DNA of 64,000 nt from Negaprion brevirostris (lineage: Eukaryota), in assembly GCA_030324005.1 (NCBI GenBank), contig JARDVH010000110.1:31195081-31259080 (forward strand). Direction: 5' to 3'. Under the pieces are notes generated by a model. The model was not told the origin of the DNA. It searched no databases and saw only the letters and a list, made by a program, of their open reading frames with translations. This document shows, piece by piece, positions 7,501-47,567 of the stretch. A program made the translations under genes and the position numbers. Position 1 is the stretch's first letter, and every line of letters begins with the position of its first letter.

Positions 7501-8804
7501 TTGTCACTTTTCTTGACACAGCATTGTTCATTTTCTTTAGAAGAAGGTCAAGATGAGGTCTAATGTATGACAAATGATGAAAGAAAAATGACACAAAGTC
7601 AAGAGTTGATGGCTACGTTTTCTTAAAGAAAGAAAAGAAAGACTTATATTGTACATTTATCAAATAAGATATATTGTTTGTGTGATTAGTTTTCCATTAT
7701 TTAGTTCATTTTTTTTAAATGAAGCAAATGGAAGAAAGTTCTAGCAAAAGTCATGAACAATATATAATCATTAAGAACCAGAATATGTGAAAGCATATTT
7801 TTCCAGCACTAATTCCAATGTTGTCGCTGAACATTGTTGCATATTTGAATTGGGTTTAAATACCACCTGTTTTTTCTAAAGCAGACTTCACGCTCATTGC
7901 AGCATCTATATTGGAACAGCACTGATAATTTTCTTGATATAATATGTACCTGAAAACTGGACAAAAGGAAGCACTAACCATTCAACAGAATACGCTAGCT
8001 GATGGGCGATGCTTTAGATATTTAGCTTTAGCAGACAAAATACTGAGTTGTGTTAAGAGTGCTGTCGGGCTCTGGATCTCCCAGCTATCATTCCCTCTCC
8101 ACTTGACTGTTGAAGGATCGTGGGTGAGAGCTGATTGTTATGATTTCTGGGATTTGTTGCCTAATATCTGCATTTCAAATGTAGAGCTATTATAGGTCAC
8201 AATTTGTCAATGTTGGCTGAACATCTAGTATTATTTTAGATTTTGCACTGTCCCTCCCTGCTGACAGCTGTGGGACAATCAAAATGGGAAAATCTAATTT
8301 GACTGTGAAAATGGCAGATCGCTGGCCCCTCACCAGTTGCTATTTTCCTCCACTAATGGAACTGTGCACCCCAGGCAGGAANNNNNAAACCCATCAAGAA
8401 CCTGCCAAATTATGGGCTGATTATGGCCACCATTTCAATTTACTGTTATATTTCCACCAAAATGAAAAATCCTGACTTCTTTCTGCACTGTCCTTTGCTG
8501 CTAAGGTAACAGTAGTCTCTTAAGAAAAAAAAGCATGTAAATACACTATCGTACAGCATTGTTTCATTTTCCAGGACAGATGCACGTTAGAAGCTCCCCT
8601 TGAGCTATTGCTGGATTTTTTTTTGATGATAAGATATGGAACTGCTCATGTTTGAATGTGCCTCAAAACTGAAGACAAAATCTCACCACAATAAAACCAC
8701 AGCACAAGAAAAAGGACAATGTGAGAAATCATTTTTAATATGCTGGCTTGGTTTGATAGGAAAATGAACCAGAAAATGTAATTCTTTTATCACATGTTGG
8801 CCTT

Positions 8805-9812
8805 TTATTGCTCCACTGCAAACCCAACTTTCCCCTTTGGCATGGTGCTGATAGAGGCACTGCTAGTGGAGGGGTTCGCTATGTGTATATCTTCTGTAGA
8901 AATGGAAGAATCTGTTAGAGTTGGAATTACTTTGCCACTCGCTGCTGACTTTCCACATNNNNNNNNNNNNNNNNNNNNNNNNNNNNNNNNNNNNNNNNNN
9001 NNNNNNNNNNNNNNNNNNNNNNNNNNNNNNNNNNNNNNNNNNNNNNNNNNNNNNNNNNCCTTGACTTTGATTATCTCCCATTTTTGAATAGGCCAGGCCA
9101 GTTTCTGTTAGGATCTGACTACAGGGGCAAGCTTGATCCAGCACCTCCTCAGTGACAAGGGTAACCAAAGAACTAATATCTTCACTAATTTGACTCAAAC
9201 TTCTCAGCATTGCTATGTTCATCTGTTGCAGGTTTGTATCTACTTGTTTGAGGCCAACATAAATAGCACCCCATATACTGGACATATCTATCTCAAGAGA
9301 ATTCTGGATCTCAGTGAGGCCAACTTTCAAAGCACTCATCTGGTCTGCCATTCCATCCTGCAAGGCATCCTGCAAGTTTGAAAACATGGAAGCTTGCATG
9401 TCCGCTGTACCATACTTCTCTGAGGCTTGCAGCTTTGCCATGTTGAGTTGCTCAGCTGCATGCACGTCAGTAAAATTAGTATGCATGTATGCTTCAAGAT
9501 CAGCCATGGCAGCTTGTAGATCCCCACTGATTGCATTCTTAGCCTCTTGGAGCCCCAAGAACACAGCCTGAATATTCAGATCAAGCAGATCATGTGGCAC
9601 TACAACTTGCATCTGATGACACCTACGTAGCCTTGTGGATGGTCTAGAAACTGCTTCCTCCATCAGCTGTGCTACAACTGCTTGTTCTGAGGTGACTAGC
9701 TGCATTGATCGCTCCTGTGCTGAAGGTGACTGTGTTGTTTCTTGAGCCCCTCTTGTGGTTATCTTGATGCTTGATTTGGCTGGCCTCTCCAGCACCAATG
9801 GAACCGGCACAT
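8805..9812 (-). CDS. Intact large exon-like ORF with a coiled-coil region resembling the Harbinger Myb/SANT (ORF2) C-terminus; candidate terminal exon of the TRIM gene
   Basis: Acceptor gtttctttctatccgagcag|AT (phase 1). About 250 stop-free codons run to the gap at 9058 (DVPVPLVLE...LGLQEAKNAISGDLQAAMADLEA...). After the gap an open S/T-rich frame reads CGKSAASGKVIPTLTDSSISTEDIHIANPSTSSASISTMPKGKVGFAVEQ*, with AATAAA overlapping the stop. Frame across the gap is unverified. Confidence 0.6.
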
Positions 9813-10065
9813 CTGCTCGGATAGAAAGAAACAAGCATGAAACTATCATTCAGCCAGCTGAGGACGGAGCTGTTGCCTCCAAACTCGAAAACAGTGTCAT
9901 CTAAAATGGATCTGATAGTAACATGGGGGATAATGATAGATAAAGCAACCTGTTATCATTGACAGCAGGAAGCAGTGAAAATTGCTGTTCAAGATGAAGA
10001 GAAGAACATGGTAATGATGAAAGCTCAGGTCTGATTATGATAATGGCACCAAATGAAGAGCTCAC

Positions 10066-10135
10066 TGATAGCCTCCTCTCGACAGAGGAGAAGTATTTTG
10101 AGCAAGGCTTGATATAACGGCAGCTGCAGTAGTAT
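10066..10135 (-). other. Candidate 70-nt exon
   Basis: gtttctgctgtatag|AT ACT ACT...TAT CA|gtgagc. All three frames are open. The phase-1 frame gives (D)TTAAAVISSLAQNTSPLSRGGY. Usage unproven. Confidence 0.3.
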
Positions 10136-12117: not shown

Positions 12118-12222
12118 ATAAATCCTCCATCTCCCAAGTTTGGATGTGTGCACCGTATTTATTTATAATCCACATAATTAAATACGGTGCACATATCCAA
12201 ACTTGGGAGATGGAGGATTTAT
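12118..12222. repeat. Near-perfect 44-bp inverted repeat (hairpin)
   Basis: 12118-12161 pairs with 12179-12222 at 43/44 positions; 17-nt AT-rich loop. Confidence 0.95.
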
Positions 12223-24536: not shown

Positions 24537-25572
24537 TTCCTGGCAATTCTTGTGGAGTCTTTGCACTGGGACTTCCAAGGCATCTTCTGGGTACCTCCAG
24601 TGTATAACCACCTGGAGACTGGAAGATCTGTCCTGTTTTTCCATTAATTCATTTGGACTGAAATTGAATTGCAAATTCTGAAATTCTATTACAGATTCCA
24701 CATAGGTATACACTGACGCAATTGAGTAAGACAGAAAGATATGGATATAGATTGATTGCATGTACTTTCAGTTTACAAACCAACACTAACAAGTGAATTA
24801 AGGATGATATTATGAGCATTGCTTTCAAATTATATCTGTGGTATCGGAAATTTAAAAACAAAACAGTGGCACACTTATTCTGAAGAAGTGTTGCCTCTCT
24901 CATTAAGATATACTTCCCAACCATTTAGCCATGACAAATAAAACTCTTTTTTCTGGATTGTTTTTTACTTCTTTGCTGTGATGTTAATCATTGTTTATCT
25001 ACCACTATTTTCATTTATGACAATCCTTTGGCGTAGCAATCATATTTATTACAGATCTGTGAACTGTTGCAACCATCTGAAAACTATCTGATGTACAACC
25101 GTGATCAATGTTATTTTGTGCCCTTCGGTAGTTGACCATTCAGCGCTTGTCTTGATGAAAGTACCTTTACTTCTGACAAATGGCTTGAGCCTTGCAGTTT
25201 TATAAAAATGAGCTAGTTTTTGTACCTTTACTTTGATTGTTATTGTCTATTTGCTGACAATAATATACAATGACACAGGTATCAGGCAGCTTATTGATGA
25301 TACATTCCAATGATTTCTGCCAATATTTGATTGAGTGTCAACATAGAATGGATAATAAATTCAAGATGCAGTCAATAGATTGTATGGAATTCATAACAGA
25401 GTGATAACTGATGTGGCTTTAACAATCAAAAGATAGAATCCAACAACTAGCATTGGCATCAGGAAAAAAAGTTTTGTTACTTAAAATAAATTGCAGTTTA
25501 CAATCAGTCACAAAATATATACAGGCAGTTTCTCAACTTCTGTGATAATCTATTTAGTTTGTCAATAAGTAC

Positions 25573-25631
25573 CTTTGGAAAATAGAGATGTGTACTGAGC
25601 TCTTCTGATGTCCCCGCTTCCTACAGTTTTC
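25573..25631 (-). CDS. Probable TRIM coding exon 7 (59 nt)
   Basis: ttctttatcatag|G AAA...AAA G|gtactt. Translates (L)KTVGSGDIRRAQYTSLFSK. Phase 2-1, continues exon 6 and ends in phase 1 like the exon that normally precedes the terminal TRIM exon. Confidence 0.62.
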
Positions 25632-26329
25632 CTATGATAAAGAATCAAATCATAATTAGTATTCAAGATGTACAGACACCTTGAAATAATTAACTGGCAT
25701 GAAAGCCTGCATCATAAATTGTGCCAACATATACTACCCAGATACAATTGACTAAATATCACTGTTTGTCATCTCAGGAAAAGGCCCTCATCCCAACAAG
25801 CTTCACCTACTTCATTAATAACCTTCCTTCCAGCAGAAGCATTCAGAATGAAGCTGGCCACTAATGATTGCACAGTGTTCAGACATCCAGCAGAGTGTTA
25901 GGAAAATATCAGGGAAATCCTATAAATTGAAATAACCTCTGCCGATTGTATATTTTTTAAAACTATCAGAAAACAGAAGCTGCTTAAAGGCAGGGACAGT
26001 GGTATTATGCTAATGGAACTAATACTTTTGTTGATGGGCCTAGCAACACATCAAATGGCTACTTACCTAAGGCAAGCCAGTAACAACGGCGAACAGAATA
26101 TTAAAGGTTTGAGTAAGGGGTTATGAGGTTCAAAGGAGGTGACAAAGTGTGAACTTTGCATTTAAACTCAAAAAGGTGGACTCTGGGATTTGGAATAACC
26201 TGACATTTACCATCAGCCCATAGTCTTAACAAGAAAGGATGGGCTAAATGGTTTCCTCTTGTGCTGCAATGGTTCTATCACTCTACAGACCAGTCATATC
26301 AACACTGCAGCTACAAGAGCAGAACAGAG

Positions 26330-26800: not shown

Positions 26801-27194
26801 TTGTTTTTACATTTAGAACAGTTGGTATGATCTAGTGAGTATTATACAGACGGCAGGAGGAGGTAATAGAGTCAGTGTTTCAGATCCCAGCATCCACTTT
26901 AATTAGTGTTTATCATTTCATAATTGCTGGCTTAATAAATATAACAATAACCAACATTTCCAAATGTGTGAAGGAATCATGCACTCACAAAACTGATAGC
27001 AAATGCAGAAATAAACTGGAAAATCAAATTACCAATGAAAATGAGCATGTGCTTCTTTCCTGATCCTCCAGCATTTAATGTCATTAAATTCAGCATTCCC
27101 ACTTGTTCTAACACTACTATTGTGTAACTGGCTAATAGACCAGCTTACAGTACCATTACAATGAAGAATTACTAAATGTCCTTCTTCTACTTAC

Positions 27195-27273
27195 AGCGAT
27201 TCAGGCAAATTTTCTTCCTCATTCTCATCTTCCATTGCAAATCTTTCTTCCACCACTTCATCATTTGACTGAA
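27195..27273 (-). CDS. Probable TRIM coding exon 6 (79 nt, acidic linker)
   Basis: poly-T+ag|TT CAG...TCG CT|gtaagt. Translates (V)QSNDEVVEERFAMEDENEEENLPES(L). Phase 1-2, fits the exon 5 output, strong splice sites. Confidence 0.72.
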
Positions 27274-28503
27274 CTAAAAAAAAAAGTTTAAAAATTCATA
27301 CATAGGACAATGATTTATGTTATTCCTGTATACAGCATTACAATCCACAGGTATTACCCTAACTGGATCATATACAGTAACAAATCACATGGAAACAAAA
27401 TAATCATGGTTTAAGAGGCATGTTTCAGGCTTATATGTCACATAGAATTATTATGCGCTACAATTCACAAAATAAAGTTATGCGTTTTCTGTTTAAAAAA
27501 TGTAACCATTAATCAGTTTCCTATACAACTTGTCAATTATATTTATTACCATCAACAACTTTTATTTTTTACAACCTAACCAATTAATAATCCACTTCAC
27601 AATTCCTTTTAGGCCAAGTACCTGGGTTTTCAGCCCCTGCCAGGGCTAGGATTGGAATCAGACTGGAGCTATGAATTGTCCTGCCCAATAGTGCACTGGT
27701 TCCCCAGCTCCATCTCGTCTTTGAGCTGTTCTTACTAAGGTAGAATGTGGGTGGCACTGTGACAGGAATGGGAGTGGGGGTGGGAAGGTGTGAGTGGACC
27801 AGCAAGAATATTCACCTGCACATGTCATAAGGCCAAATAAAAGGAGGCTGCCTTGGACTTTTCAATCAGTCCCTAGGTCTCCACAGGCAGTTTAAGCACT
27901 TGAAGCAGGCCACCAGGCAACAGACGCTCCCTGCCAGCCTGCTCACATCCAAGAGAAACCACAAGCTGCCCTGTGAAGGAGTTCTGCAGTTCTCCCCCCA
28001 CACTGGTGACCTGCCTTTGGATCTTAAGAACAAGGTCATAGCTGGATTGAAGTGCCCTATTATCCTCCTTTGCAATCTAATGCTCCTTCCATGCTGGATA
28101 GCCACAGATTGTTCTCCAGATTGAGAGCCCACTCACTGTCTTTAATTGAACATCAAGCACCCATTTCCACCCCACCCCTCCCCCCCTCCGCCCCTCCCCT
28201 CCCTTCCCCAGGCCAATTATGGGAGTACATGAAAATCAAAAGGAATGACTGTTTCTGCCCATAGGTGCATCCAAGACCAAGAAAATGTCTCTTGAACTCA
28301 GTTCTTACCCCTGGGTGGAAAATCATTGCTCTCTCTCTCTCTCCACCACCAATCCCACCTCTCACCCCCTCATCCTCCAATAGGTATGCTCATTTTTTTC
28401 ATTCCCATATTCTATCTTTCAATTTCTGTCAAATATTTTAAATCTTGTACCATGACAATCATGTGCATTTTGAACTAATTGTAGTTATGTTACCACTTAC
28501 AAC

Positions 28504-35759: not shown

Positions 35760-36510
35760 ATGAGCCTGTAGAGCTGGTGATAACCCGAATTACTGCTCTG
35801 GAGGTGGATGTAATGCCAACTCTGACAAGCCCAATCCAGAATGCAGCCTCTGCAGTAGGAGGCCACAGGTCAGGATTAAGATCTGGCAGCCCCTCAGACT
35901 GAGGAGCAGGGGTCAAAGAGACTGCAGAAGGAGTTCTTGGGTTGACAGGACCTATACGTCCCTCACTGACCTGCTGGACACCATGTGCTGCCAAAGTCTT
36001 CAGTTAACCAAGGTGAGAGCATGGCACATCTGCGTCAGTGTGGGACCTGACACCTCATGGGGTAGGACACCTGCTCCCAGTGGCCTACAAATTCATGGCA
36101 GCCCTGAACTCTTTTGCTGCTGGATCAGTTCAGAAATTATGACTGATGACGCCACTGTGTAGGCCTGAGACCGAGTGGAATCTTGTTGTAATGCCATACA
36201 GACAGTAATCAGATGGTGCATAAGGTTAATGAGATGCACTTCCACTGTTTGGACTGCTCTAGCAGTTCTCCTCTGGAAGCCTCAACCTCTGGGTTGTTGT
36301 AGTTTGCTATGCCCTCCATAAACTAACATGGCAGCAAGGTGACATGCTGGAGGAGGAAGAGGAAGACCGTGTCACTTCCTCCGATGAGGAGGTGGACCAG
36401 GAGGGTGAGCCCAAAGAGGACCCAGAGGAAGGAAGGCAGGCAGCTAGGGTGCGATGGGCCAGGAGGACCAGGAAGGTCCTGATCGCCGCCAGATCTCAGA
36501 TTAGGAGGCT
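35760..36510 (+). pseudogene. Harbinger DDE transposase remnant
   Basis: VAYKFMAALNSFAAGSVQ (compare HARBI1-type ALxFYATGSFQ), MHFHCLDCS (compare MRFRCLDRS), VVVCYALHKL (compare IVACCVLHN), followed by an acidic tail LEEEEEDR. Internally deleted. Confidence 0.8.
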
Positions 36511-37049
36511 TGGCATCTGGCAGCTCCATTACCCCTGTATCCTTCAACTGCACCCCACTAATAGAGCCTCCTCCTCTCCCCCCAGCCATCGACCCCCACC
36601 ACCACTCACCCATGACTGGACCTGGGTTGCCAGTGACAGTAACTCACTTGTCAAGGCAGGAAGGTGATGACGACTTGCTGTGAGGGAAGCTCTGATGCTC
36701 CTCAGATTCTGCTTATGTCTGACTCCTGTCTGTCTGTGCTGATTGCACACTGACTCCCAAATTCATGTGTCAGGGTTAACGGTACATTCTTTATCACTAA
36801 GGGGGAAAAGGGAGAAGGTTAAGCGTACGGTGAGTGATGAAGCACTCATTCCAGGGTGTATGTCACTGAGGGTCACCGTTGGGATTGGTTGTAGGGCCTG
36901 CAGGAGGATCTGCATTCTGGGGTCAAAAACAGGGATGTTGTGGTTTTGAGGAGAAAACTTCTTTAAAATGGTGAATCTTAAATTATCAAGTCCCTTATTA
37001 ACAGTGTCTGACTTCACCTGTGCCCAGTCTGTGTTCCAAAAACTTTCTA

Positions 37050-38762
37050 ATTTTACATGGCTTACCACTATACCAACGTGTCTCCCCAGGATGTTGCACC
37101 AGAAGTGGAAGAGGCCTTTGCCTTTTGTGTGCCTTATAGCTTGAAATGCCCTTGGCGGATGTCCTCTGCAGGTCCTAGACCCAGAAGGACCCAGCCAGCT
37201 TTCAGGGTTCCATCACTGTCCTGACATGCACAAGAAGGGGGGATTCAGAGGAGCTGGAGACTAAGTGTTGCCTTGATGGAAGGCCCTGGGATTGTCTCCA
37301 GTGCTTCCTCCTCTCTTGGGAGCTAGGCTACTCCATAGGATGGAGGGGCAGTTGGAGTGAGGTCCAGAAGCCTCTGTGTCGTCTGGCGCTGTCAGTCCTG
37401 ACATTGTCTAAACCAGGTTTTTGAAGCCCTCAGCAAAGGCCCTCGGTGTCTGGACCATGATTCTATATGAGTTGGCCATGCTCTGGAGGCCCTCAGCCAT
37501 GGTCCTCAAACACTGCTCCATGCCTTAAACTCCTCCACTCAAGGCTTAGACATCCTGCCTGAGGCATTTCACTGCTGTCACCACCCTTGCAGTGTTGGCC
37601 TGGGCGCCACACAATGCTGGCAGCATCTCCTGCAACTGAAGGCTTTGCGGCACCTCCAATTGGCCTCCAGTTGTGGGAATTTCACTGACAATCCCGCATA
37701 GATTTCCCAGCTCTGCCTTTGCATCACCAGCAGTTCAGGAAGGAACATGTCCAGGGACACGGAATCTAGCTAAGACACAACTATGTCCTGGATTTAGCAG
37801 ATCTCTGCCCGCCTGATCCCTGGGATGTTGTTGTCTCCATCTAAAGTGTATCAGCATTGTGTGGTACTGATCACATGATGACCCAGAAGCTTGCCTAAGA
37901 TTGTCCACCGAGGTGTATGTCTCTGCGACAGTGGATGGTGCGGATGAAAATTGTGGTGCCTCTTCAGTTTTCCTTGGAGATCTGCTCTGCAGTGTTGTCA
38001 AGGGTGGACGATACCTCTAGATGGCCCGGCCTCATCTTGCAGTGATTCTACAAGACAAGGGACAGTTTCAGTAAATGGGAAGGACAACAGTCCGGCATTC
38101 AACAGCTCATTTGAGACAGGTCACCTGGATTAAAGGGGAAGTGGATCCACATTTCTCTGGTGCAGGCCAACTTCACTGTCAGTCATAGCTCGCTCCTGGC
38201 CTTCCCCTGTGATCCCCATAGAACTTTCTTCATAGGGGGTGCGGAGTCTGAACTCAGGCATGCCCCCATCCATCTTCACCCTTCCCCTTTATTATGGGAT
38301 GTCTTCTCCTGTGGAGAAACAAAGAGGACATTATGGGCTGAATGCCTGGCAGTTCGAGAGTCTATAGCACATGGCATATGTGGGCATCACGCTGTGACAG
38401 AAAGGGTTTTTGATGAAAAGTGCTGGTTCCGAGGAAGATGCTGGGAGGTCAGGTATCAGGAAGCTGCAGGGTGGTAATGGGTGGATCAAGGACACATTCT
38501 GTAGGCACCAGGGGGAGACAGGTGGTCACTCACCCTTGTAGCACGTAGAAGGTCATTCGTCTTCTTGTGGCATTGGGCCCCCAGCTTCTTTGTGCTGGTG
38601 GCACAAGCTATAACTGCCATCACCTCTAGGCAGTGTTAGCAATCTTACTTGGGGTGTCCCTTCAAATCATGAGTAAAGGGTGCCCTGCCTCTCCTGTGCT
38701 GCGTCCAAAAGCCTGGGCAGGTCGCCGACCAAGAAACATGAAGCAGGTCTCCTTGCAGCTAT
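37050..38762 (-). pseudogene. Harbinger Myb/SANT-like (ORF2) gene remnant with introns
   Basis: Exon 1 (38534-38762): ARRPASCFLVGDLPRLLDAAQERQGTLY...CLEVMAVIACATSTKKLGAQCHKKTNDLLRATR|gtgagt, start codon reads ATA. Exon 2 from 38308: EKTSHNKG..DGGMPEFRLRTP. The last exon carries heptads (LLVMQRQSWEIYAGLS...MAEGLQSMA). Confidence 0.82.
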
Positions 38763-39351: not shown

Positions 39352-39488
39352 CAGGGTGGTCAAAAATGATGGTGTTTAACATCTCAAAGATTCGCTTGGT
39401 CTCCTGTTTGATGGTTGAAATTGTGGTCTCATCCAGTTTCTTCCAGGACACCTTCAGTTTCTCTACCTCAGTATTGTTGTTAGAGATC
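39352..39488 (-). CDS. TRIM coding exon 5 (137 nt, linker helix)
   Basis: aatttcag|G ATC...CCT G|gtaagt. Translates ISNNNTEVEKLKVSWKKLDETTISTIKQETKRIFEMLNTIIFDHP. Phase 2-1 with a consensus donor. Confidence 0.88.
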
Positions 39489-40058
39489 CTGAAATTGTTT
39501 AAAATCAAATATTTCCAATTGACATTATTTGTTCCTCAGTCTCAAAAGCACATTCTGTTTTGTTGTGCACAGTATAGACAAGCAAATTTAAATATGGTTT
39601 TTAAAAGAACATGCAATTTAATTTTTAAATAAATTCCTATAAGAAAGTGACATTGTTTTTATATTCAGTCACAAATATAGATCGTATTGGAGTGCTTCAT
39701 TGTATTGATTATACATAATGTTATTGTGACAAAAATGATGCACAATTGTTCCATCCCTCCTCTTTATCCACAGGAATAAAGGATGTGGGAATGATTAAAT
39801 ATACCAGCCAGAAAATCAACATTATAAATCTCACTTAGTCAAAGGTTGTTTCACTGAAGAACTTGTAGATTGGCTACAAAACAAAGCGTTTAGCATTTGG
39901 TACCAAGATTCAAACCTATTCTGTCAGGTTTGCTTGGTTATGCATTAAGGAAATTCAAATTCATTATTGAATCCAACAGATAATCTGACAAGCAGAAACA
40001 GAAGATTTTGGAAATAGTAAGTCAGGCAGCATTTGTGGAGAGAGAAACAGAGATAATG

Positions 40059-40945: not shown

Positions 40946-41128
40946 GAGATAGTCTGATAAACTTGCTTTCAAGGCCTTCACCACGTGTAATTTTTATACT
41001 AGTGGAGCCTGATCCAAGGTATTTTCCCGAGGGTTCTAGGATTAATCCTTCTCCACTTGCCCCATAAGTACAACTTATCACACCTTAGCCCTTTTCTTTG
41101 TGCTTTCTAACATTAGCTAAAATCCTAC

Positions 41129-41151
41129 CTTTCATAAGTAGATTTGAAATC
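41129..41151 (-). CDS. TRIM coding exon 4 (23 nt microexon)
   Basis: gtcttttgcag|GATTTCAAATCTACTTATGAAAG|gtagga, translating DFKSTYE(R). The 23-nt phase 0-2 exon is typical of TRIM genes and bridges exons 3 and 5 exactly. Confidence 0.88.
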
Positions 41152-44892: not shown

Positions 44893-45126
44893 CTTAATAA
44901 AGAATAATGGATCTTTTTGATTTTTCAGGTCTTGTACCTCCTGAATAAGATGAGTAATCACTTCTCTTTTAATTTCCAATTCTTGGATTTTCTTTAAGAC
45001 TTTCGAAAGATTTATATTTTTTTCTGTTATAACTGTGTCTAAGATTTGCTTTTCTTGTTTGGTCAGCAGCATTCTAATTTCCTGGAACAAGTCTGAAATT
45101 TGTTTTCTCAAAACAGCACTATCTTT
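44893..45126 (-). CDS. TRIM coding exon 3 (234 nt, coiled coil)
   Basis: tttcattacag|AAA...AAG|gtaata. Translates KDSAVLRKQISDLFQEIRMLLTKQEKQIL...QKDPLFFIK. Canonical 231-234 nt TRIM exon. Confidence 0.95.
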
Positions 45127-45374
45127 CTGTAATGAAAGAAAAATAATTCTCATTAAAGAGTAAGGATTTAAATCATTGATTCTGCCTTTCGCAGTAATAT
45201 CAATTAATGGATGGTAATGTCTGTCTTCCCTCAAACCCGAGATTTAGCAGCTATCAAGCCACTGAAGAAGAATTATCGTTTTCTTGTCACCATGCTATAA
45301 ATACGGTTATAAGAAATCTTTTTGTGCAGAAACTTTGATGAAATGATGCTTCAGATAGACTAATGCTAATCCAT

Positions 45375-46500: not shown

Positions 46501-46771
46501 TACCTGCATGATTTGCATGCGCCTCATGTATTTAATTAAATAACTAAAAATAACCATTTTAGCTGCCTGTGTTTTTTTTCTTTGTGGGATTCACATTAAA
46601 CATGGTTCCTTTGGAGTTTATCAAAGAGGAATATGTGCATTATCTCGAAGATCCCAAACATTTGAGTTTTTGAGCAAATCAACAAGACAGCTCTACGTAA
46701 GCATTTAAGTTGCAGTTTCATGTGAATTATATCAAAAATCAGATGGATATTTTCAGAATAAACACAAATAC

Positions 46772-46867
46772 CTTTAAGTTCATTTCTGTTCCTTGCAGCT
46801 CTTTCGTAGCTTCCTCTAAATTTGCTCTGCAACTCTGCAGCTTCTCCAGTTTTTCTGAAAGGCTGGC
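46772..46867 (-). CDS. TRIM coding exon 2 (96 nt, coiled coil)
   Basis: caacag|GCC...AAG|gtattt. Translates ASLSEKLEKLQSCRANLEEATKELQGTEMNLK. A 96-nt phase 0-0 exon is the canonical second coding exon of TRIM genes. Confidence 0.93.
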
Positions 46868-46988
46868 CTGTTGATGTAATTTTTATAGTGATGCCAGTTA
46901 CAATATATCAAAAGTTGGCATATTTAATTATCTCTCAAATGAATGAAGTTTTTTCAAAGCCTAAATATTCAGTACAATGCTCTCTTAC

Positions 46989-47567
46989 CTTTGTCTCATT
47001 ATGTATGTCTTTTAAAATGCGTATGTCGTGGTTCTTGTGTGGACCAGCAACATAACATGTTACACAAATACAGGAGTGGTCATCTAAGCAGTAATATTCA
47101 ATGAGCTTCTCATGATCTGAACATTTTCTGTCTTCCAGCGAACTTGCAGGCTCAATCAGTAGGTGATTTTTCTGAGCTGTTTTCTCAGAGTGCTTTCTCA
47201 AGTGATGCTCACATAAAGATGCTTCACAGTTCATGCATGTTTTGACTGCAGGGAGGGGATTATCCAAACAGAAATCACAGAAGATCTTAGGTGGTTCCTC
47301 ATTCATCTGTGTGGCTTCAAAACGTTCTATTATGTTACTCAATTTCAAATTTTTGTGCAGCACGGGCTTTTGAGCATATTCAGCTCGGCACTCTGGGCAC
47401 GAGTAGCCAGGCCCTGTGTCTTTCTTGTCCCAGTTCTTTTCAATGCAACTACGACAGAAATTATGCCCACAGGACAAGGAAACTGGTTCTGTGTAAATAT
47501 TCCAGCAAATTGAACAATTTAATTCTTCTTTCAAATTACCAACAGCTGAAGTAGAAGCCATTTTCAT
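46989..47567 (-). CDS. TRIM (TRIM25/finTRIM-like) E3 ligase, first coding exon: RING + B-box1 + B-box2
   Basis: Translation MKMASTSAVGNLKEELNCSICWNIYTEPVSLSCGHNFCRSCI...CPECR is a C3HC4 RING, followed by CDFCLDNPLPAVKTCMNCEASLCEHH (B-box1) and CSDHEKLIEYYCLDDHSCICVTC...HKNH (B-box2). Donor AAG|gtaaga, 579 nt, phase 0. An acceptor ctcttcctcag lies 2 nt before the ATG, implying an upstream non-coding exon that I did not locate. Confidence 0.97.

Follow-up and report, generated by a model that had tools for sequence, protein, structure and literature searches.

NAIF1 and MSANTD1-4 are described, in the accessible part of the report (PMC9392472), as domesticated Harbinger Myb-like genes that keep the Myb domain. 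In TSNARE1 a Harbinger Myb is fused to a SNARE, and isoforms occur with or without the transposon part (accessible text of 10.1101/2021.02.09.430442). For tetrapods, the available part of a survey reports host-transposase fusion genes that originated by alternative splicing and kept their transposase domains (10.1101/2020.05.07.082677). The known cases of Harbinger domestication and of host-transposon fusion were identified through DNA-binding or catalytic domains. According to the accessible part of PMC9179366, similarity among Myb-like proteins is confined to portions of the Myb domain, and elephant shark yielded no Harbinger.

A 64,000-nucleotide stretch of the Negaprion brevirostris genome (contig JARDVH010000110.1, positions 31,195,081 to 31,259,080; the window) was analysed for the nature of one long open reading frame (ORF). 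In the account that we consider fairly likely, the ORF is exon 8 of a TRIM gene in its read-through form, and it began as the last exon of an ancient Harbinger ORF2-type Myb/SANT gene, captured through its splice acceptor and predicted to form a self-associating rod. As with NAIF1 and MSANTD1-4, a Myb/SANT ORF2-type source is likely, with long retention in jawed vertebrates and several independent events; however, those genes are stand-alone and defined by their Myb domain in the accessible report (PMC9392472), whereas the shark exon has no Myb and is a last helical exon that forms an alternative end of a host gene. The accessible text on TSNARE1 (10.1101/2021.02.09.430442) likewise describes a host gene fused to Harbinger ORF2, whose isoforms either contain or lack the transposon part, but TSNARE1 took the DNA-binding domain and the shark TRIM would have taken the tail, at its C-terminus. 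With the host-transposase fusions the exon would share capture by splicing, coexisting fusion and parental isoforms and a likely element-supplied acceptor; the survey, in its available part, covers tetrapods and Pfam transposase domains that are mostly DNA-binding (10.1101/2020.05.07.082677). Unlike the surveyed fusions, the shark domain has no Pfam match over the cut-off and would derive from a non-transposase gene.

What would be new here is that the retained piece, a helical tail, has no annotation and escapes Pfam, and that at least three unrelated genes each kept it separately, with an isoform switch in two of them. If this is true, a whole class of exons derived from transposons goes unseen in surveys based on Pfam domains, and the shark TRIM, Ig and TNFR isoforms are direct tests of the role of the tail. 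No report of the TRIM tail exon was found in literature whose coverage excluded most subscription papers and supplements.

A terminal exon of a TRIM gene with two isoforms

The initial annotation had described about 250 uninterrupted codons before an assembly gap and about 50 after it. This was confirmed: on the minus strand 9849-9061 is open, with 263 codons from the preceding stop to the gap and 251 from the exon start, and the frame runs for ~50 more codons to a TAA. The gap might have hidden a frameshift. In a near-identical DNA run (X2) position 8955 is joined to 9059, skipping 103 bases (100 N + 3), and in two RNA-guess runs, from other species, 105 bases are skipped and 2 letters intervene, which gives the same net length (4 of 21 listed runs were compared, over 8300-10100). 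Because the DNA run and the two RNA-guess runs agree in net length, the 100-N gap is spurious, and closing it by the X2 join leaves 301 open codons to the TAA at 8805 without a frameshift.

A genome search with the ORF DNA returned a single candidate, the exon itself, a result that does not prove rarity. Three of 11 protein candidates matched, the two besides the ORF itself being distant paralogues (34% and 32% identical). As first noticed, neither transposase nor terminal inverted repeats (TIRs) flank the exon: no transposase remnant was found near it, and the 25 longest of 52 inverted pairs include no convincing TIR pair, although decay would be expected. A 3-bp target duplication was likewise not seen around the exon. 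No DNA tandem repeat is left within the exon, and neither the ORF nor the long isoform gave a Myb match. Pfam searches with the ORF gave only Asp23 and Baculo_PEP_C rows (E 0.07-0.09), none over the cut-off, and the best Atlas matches (0.80 and 0.84) are leads only.

The TRIM gene of the window encodes a RING, B-boxes and a coiled coil, with no SPRY seen, and eight exons, located with the exons of shark and skate proteins, lie in order within the window (Table 1). Searching proteins with the ORF yielded entries from sharks and skate (2 of 324 candidates in one search, 10 matches in another). Skate RefSeq isoform X1 (P0013, 705 aa) carries the RING, B-boxes and coiled coil followed by the whole ORF, while the 548-549 aa isoforms of skate, two catsharks and zebra shark contain the first 62 codons of exon 8 and then an acidic tail. 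Both forms are annotated in skate RefSeq (705 and 549 aa), and short isoforms are 6 of the 7 named members of the RefSeq cluster. A search for longer proteins gave 0 of 699 candidates, a null result that is weak because P0013 exists. No readable bases matched exon 9 of the short isoform, N runs lying in that interval; the last exon of this isoform lies 4.2 kb outside the window, past its start.

Contig X20, 1022 nt long with a depth of 190, spans 8722-9814, through the whole extension to the 3' UTR, and differs from the window by no indel in 755 bases. Its 28 loose letters at 9814, compared by hand, match exon 7 in 24 of 28. X20 is thus a spliced long transcript, the one contig in which the exon 7-exon 8 junction was seen; contig X15, one of three RNA-guess runs, keeps intron-like letters at the exon 8 acceptor, which is unspliced there, and X16 is fragmentary. 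The joining to the TRIM that had been left open is therefore settled: the ORF is exon 8 of the TRIM gene, collinear with and spliced to the RING-B-box-coiled-coil exons. With SPRY-less TRIMs (RefSeq labels TRIM8-like, TRIM25-like, MID2-like) the protein has the RING, B-boxes and coiled coil in common; by comparison, the shark TRIM has two alternative C-termini, acidic or 11-mer helix. Exon 1 is 98-99% identical across sharks and skate.

Table 1. Features of the TRIM gene and its surroundings in the window
Feature	Position	Strand	Basis
Exon 1, coding part: RING, two B-boxes	46986..47567	-	Pfam; tblastn 98-99%
Exon 2, approximate ends	46770..46870	-	tblastn
Exon 3, coiled coil, approximate ends	44893..45130 (45138 by exon mapping)	-	Pfam, tblastn
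Exon 4, short, approximate ends	41128..41151	-	exon mapping
Exon 5	39353..39490	-	tblastn
Harbinger relic in a TRIM intron, from a younger subfamily of heptad type; did not give rise to exon 8	36293..38626		profiles, shuffles
Exon 6	27194..27274	-	tblastn, sequence
Exon 7; phase-1 donor, 15.8 kb intron to exon 8	25572..25633	-	tblastn, contig X20, sequence
Splice acceptor AG, phase 1	9813..9814	-	sequence; X20 loose end
Exon 8, long read-through terminal form, 301 codons with gap closed	8805..9812	-	skate P0013 tblastn; X20 8722-9814; frame test
Exon 8, 5' part common to both isoforms, 62 codons, S/T/Q/E-rich linker	9627..9812	-	P0004, P0015, P0016 match 9813-9628, then leave
Internal splice donor GTAGGT, likely used by 548-549 aa isoforms	9621..9626	-	sequence; short isoforms diverge here
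Long helical domain, 11-residue rhythm, long isoform only	9130..9594	-	period 3.66; AlphaFold
C-terminal cap, ~65 aa	9094..9297	-	shared with SHANK-locus exon, dispersed relics, Myb-gene last exon
Assembly artefact, 100 N + 3 surplus bases	8956..9058		missing from near-identical DNA run
Stop codon of long isoform	8805..8807	-	sequence
Candidate polyadenylation signal ATTAAA	8734..8739	-	sequence; X20 end at 8722 (weak hint only)

Conservation of the reading frame supports the earlier proposal of a coding exon under purifying selection. The extension is 66-91% identical across skate and sharks (helical part: skate 111/168, Chiloscyllium 128/163, Scyliorhinus torazame 125/138), all named matches being elasmobranchs, and the single-copy exon lies in the same TRIM gene in distant species with its frame intact. 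When neutral evolution to 64% identity was simulated with substitutions only, 35 of 1000 frames stayed stop-free, indels not being counted. Together, frame conservation and neutral simulation support constraint on the helical part of exon 8.

Heptads had been seen both in the ORF and in the Harbinger element at ~37.7 kb. They stand for the subfamily of the latter (hydrophobic period 3.52 with a 14-residue repeat), but not for the ORF, which has a period of 3.66, an 11-residue (11/3) rhythm. This period recalls the 11-mer amphipathic helices of apolipoproteins, Baculo_PEP_C and Gp58, the Pfam rows being far below cut-off: PF01442 gave no row for the ORF at E<=1, and relatives reach 16-24 bits against a cut-off of 90. 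A clean apolipoprotein profile scored 14% with the domain and 0.1% with the cap, a likeness of rhythm and not membership. AlphaFold modelled the domain as helices 7-64 and 70-161 (pLDDT 70, pTM 0.35). A Foldseek search of the PDB gave no match at E<=0.001, and the best hit of a wide structure search with VIA (Z 10.4, rmsd 3.1, 162 aligned) reflects long helices only and is uninformative.

Some further features of the gene were noticed. At its start the acidic tail, in exon 9 of the short isoform, is similar to exon 6 (48% over 27 aa), which suggests that an ancient exon duplication left its two copies flanking exon 8. Intron 7 contains a 49-bp inverted repeat (12118-12222; 96% complementary, 7-base loop). 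Three annotated Mobula isoforms (P0010, P0023, P0024) have neither the helical extension nor the RING part, possibly through loss or an annotation gap in this ray.

Relatives of the tail in other genes

Judged by its sequence, the helical tail also ends at least two shark genes unrelated to TRIM. It is the last exon of a gene (C84; E 1e-13), seen in five named shark and ray species, for a multi-pass membrane protein that has a single Ig domain and 4-5 hydrophobic segments, and of a TNF-receptor-like cysteine-rich protein gene without a hydrophobic segment (C157; E 2.4e-4). The Narcine isoform P0022 of the Ig gene lacks the domain, the same either-or pattern as in TRIM, and the TRIM and Ig-gene exons align as DNA (63% over 244 bases). 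P0009, a 1462-aa repeat protein, was left out of the domain set. At the TNFR locus (G000:C157:3483500-3487200; L138, minus strand) the cysteine-rich exons are followed by the helical exon, and the assembled protein has no membrane segment; its product is possibly a soluble receptor form.

A further exon (C130) was first found as a weak domain match (E 0.37 and 0.07). It lies ~7 kb past a PDZ exon that we take to be SHANK, and is nearly invariant from sharks to rays. Against the domain profile it reached 89% (score 47.0), a score attained by 0 of 98 permutations that keep the rhythm. One gene model joins it to the PDZ exon and RefSeq has it as a separate gene (G000:C130:32874000-32875830; L132:7063-8832, plus strand); a Myb helix-3-like remnant upstream is weak (3.4 bits). 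Used as query, the SHANK-locus exon gave 18 of 22 candidates at E<=10, comprising itself, the Ig and TNFR exons, three more intact frames and 12 stop-bearing rows, 9 of which were kept as relics. All nine relics have 1-3 stops in 60-67 codons; they lie on at least seven contigs and are about equally diverged. DNA identity among the relics and the C130 exon is 60-74%, with two pairs that connect to the exons of the Ig and TNFR genes.

An intact frame on C97, matched by the SHANK-locus exon at E 2.3e-5 (reciprocal 1.8e-5), is preceded by a Myb exon (PF13873, 25.4 bits, cut-off 21.7), and the donor of the one and the acceptor of the other are predicted to splice in frame. It is the only cap-family locus with a clear Myb exon. 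This intact two-exon Myb/SANT gene with cap (G000:C97:7455593-7457083; L259, minus strand) is a candidate for a domesticated gene of the shark lineage. Alone, its last exon reached 1.1% against the domain profile (score 19.6), which 8 of 98 permutations equalled and which is not significant; the direct likeness is weak, and the link therefore needs an intermediate.

The SHANK-locus exon and the relics are such intermediates; the homology seen, that of the cap, spans ~65 of the ~155 domain residues. A profile of the SHANK-locus exon and the four strongest relics reached 95.7% against the domain (score 51; 0 of 98 permutations), compared with at most 27.6 for permutations that retain the rhythm. 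Profiles free of domain members gave 97.4% with 12 loci, 97.1% with the relics alone and 95.7% with the five strongest; the same profiles gave 0.1-2% against apolipoproteins, minisatellites and two other Harbinger-type tails (for the five strongest, apolipoprotein 0.1%, minisatellite 0.2%, local Harbinger 0.2%). L249, L255 and L256 (simple repeat or cap not visible) were left out of the cap profile, and P0003, whose gene model leaves early, out of the cap alignment. A cap HMM built from the three hosts alone ranked the cap loci, together with two further intact helical frames, within the top 35 of 15,381 sequence windows, which were drawn from 65 fetched loci and are not a random sample. These relic tests are not fully independent, because the relics were chosen via the SHANK-locus exon, which was itself found with a domain member. 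In an unrooted cap tree of 24 rows the three host clades are supported and the relic branches lack resolution.

The TRIM, Ig and TNFR exons, those of the SHANK locus and the Myb gene and three last exons of Myb-linked Harbinger type all have a predicted phase-1 acceptor, often AG|ATG. Phase 1 often arises by chance, and most of these acceptors are predicted only. The similarity of the cap to the Myb-linked last exon, reached via intermediates, exceeds the shared rhythm. Myb-gene ancestry is therefore supported in two steps, and the exon probably comes from a Myb-type (Harbinger ORF2-like) C-terminus via an older family elsewhere in the genome. The Harbinger attribution itself we infer, because no transposase or TIR lies beside any member; the relics are old, and the stretches scanned contain no transposase remnant tail-to-tail with any of them.

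Origin and possible role of the exon

The initial annotation derived the ORF from the C-terminus of the Harbinger Myb protein, through the element at ~37.7 kb. That element is indeed a decayed Harbinger, with a transposase C-terminus at 36293-36433 (plus strand) and a Myb remnant at 38531-38626 (minus strand). However, the 33-residue match quoted for it has 7 identities in 32 positions and a BLOSUM62 score of 1; the best local score of the ORF was equalled by 302 of 500 shuffles against this element and by 287 of 500 against an intact copy of its subfamily. A 29-copy profile of the subfamily matched the domain at 1.8%, and the domain HMM reached at best 3 bits on 30 loci of the subfamily. A 27-column profile match (E 0.026) does fall on the very segment that had been named, but with these scores and a heptad set against an 11-mer rhythm, descent from the 37.7 kb subfamily is refuted at the sensitivity tested and strikes us as extremely improbable, a deep common ancestry of all such tails being possible. 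A Myb-type source stays probable, through another, older family. We give similarly little credence to the part past the internal donor being an intron that is open by chance and seen in pre-mRNA or leaky transcripts. The unspliced acceptor in one RNA-guess run and the predominance of short isoforms in RefSeq would fit such an intron, yet the frame is kept in skate, bamboo shark and catshark, and X20 is spliced, has a depth of 190 and shows no indel in 755 bases.

The 11-residue helix could also have grown from a 33-bp intronic minisatellite, with its likeness to the host genes a convergence of periodic sequence. The highest scores of the domain HMM come from translated 33-bp arrays (75 bits; as a profile 96%, score 60), and because of this the 11-mer rhythm alone is no evidence of origin; the missing DNA tandem repeat fits this and the other views alike. 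Against it, the cap profile separates minisatellites (0.2-1.3%) from the domain (95-97%), permutations that keep the rhythm fall far below the cap score, and the TRIM and Ig-gene exons align as DNA. We regard a minisatellite origin as quite improbable, and expansion of a minisatellite within the exon after capture as possible. Spread of the module by duplication or retro-copying of the last exon of a host Myb gene, with the TRIM exon conserved and the relics as pseudogene fragments, is unlikely but deserves more weight. It would explain why neither transposase nor TIR adjoins any member and why relics are few (12 of 18 rows stop-bearing) compared with 175 genomic matches of the young 37.7 kb subfamily. 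The scatter of about equally diverged relics over at least seven contigs argues against such copying, as do the PF13873 genes of this build, which are typical Harbinger ORF2 with one intact copy in the window's own subfamily, and the Harbinger derivation reported for vertebrate host genes of such kind in the accessible part of PMC9392472.

Under the preferred reading, capture of an element's exon, a Myb-type element would have inserted into the TRIM intron before sharks and rays split, and the phase-1 acceptor of its own last exon would have captured exon 7. The internal donor would keep the older acidic C-terminus in the short isoform, and polyadenylation near 8722 would end the long form, whose tail is predicted to add an 11/3 helix of ~150 residues after the TRIM coil. 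Higher-order assembly activates the RING of TRIM proteins, and because of this our best guess for the function of the extension is an extra oligomerising coil, which may cluster RING dimers or relocate the ligase; the alternative is a lipid-surface anchor. More speculatively, and we think improbably, one ancient transposon exon family might serve as a plug-in assembly module in elasmobranchs, as a phase-1-captured, switchable C-terminus in TRIM, Ig and TNFR (there replacing the membrane anchor) and in nearly invariant form at the SHANK locus. Its unrelated hosts would then oligomerise, perhaps together or with Myb proteins of live Harbinger elements, which would in turn be ubiquitinated by the TRIM.

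Other Myb-type tails and helical frames in the genome

Myb-linked last exons with a 'GPAFKR' motif were considered as a source and set aside. They reached 48.8% against the domain, with 1 of 98 permutations attaining the score and 14% for the clean apolipoprotein control. The link is suggestive only. A first apolipoprotein control that contained a minisatellite row scored equal (48.3%). Several 'GPAFKR' last exons are intact among many broken copies (L068, L069, L072, L146, L149, L173, L174, L187) and are candidates for more domesticated genes.

Long open 11-residue repeats are also produced by 33-bp minisatellites at L088, L092, L216 and L231, which mimic apolipoprotein-like domains in HMM searches. 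A copy of the 37.7 kb subfamily with an open Myb exon and an open 406-codon last exon lies at G000:C84:80572000-80574000 (L051/L140, minus strand). On C163 an intact 331-codon frame of the Myb last-exon type (G000:C163:120820460-120821453; L128, minus strand), with decayed relatives, lies ~25 kb beyond a same-strand LHFPL exon, and no Myb exon was found upstream of it. Four more intact frames end in cap-like helices: L272:8005-8805 (plus strand), L354, L261:847-1506 (minus strand) and L263:8401-9015 (plus strand).
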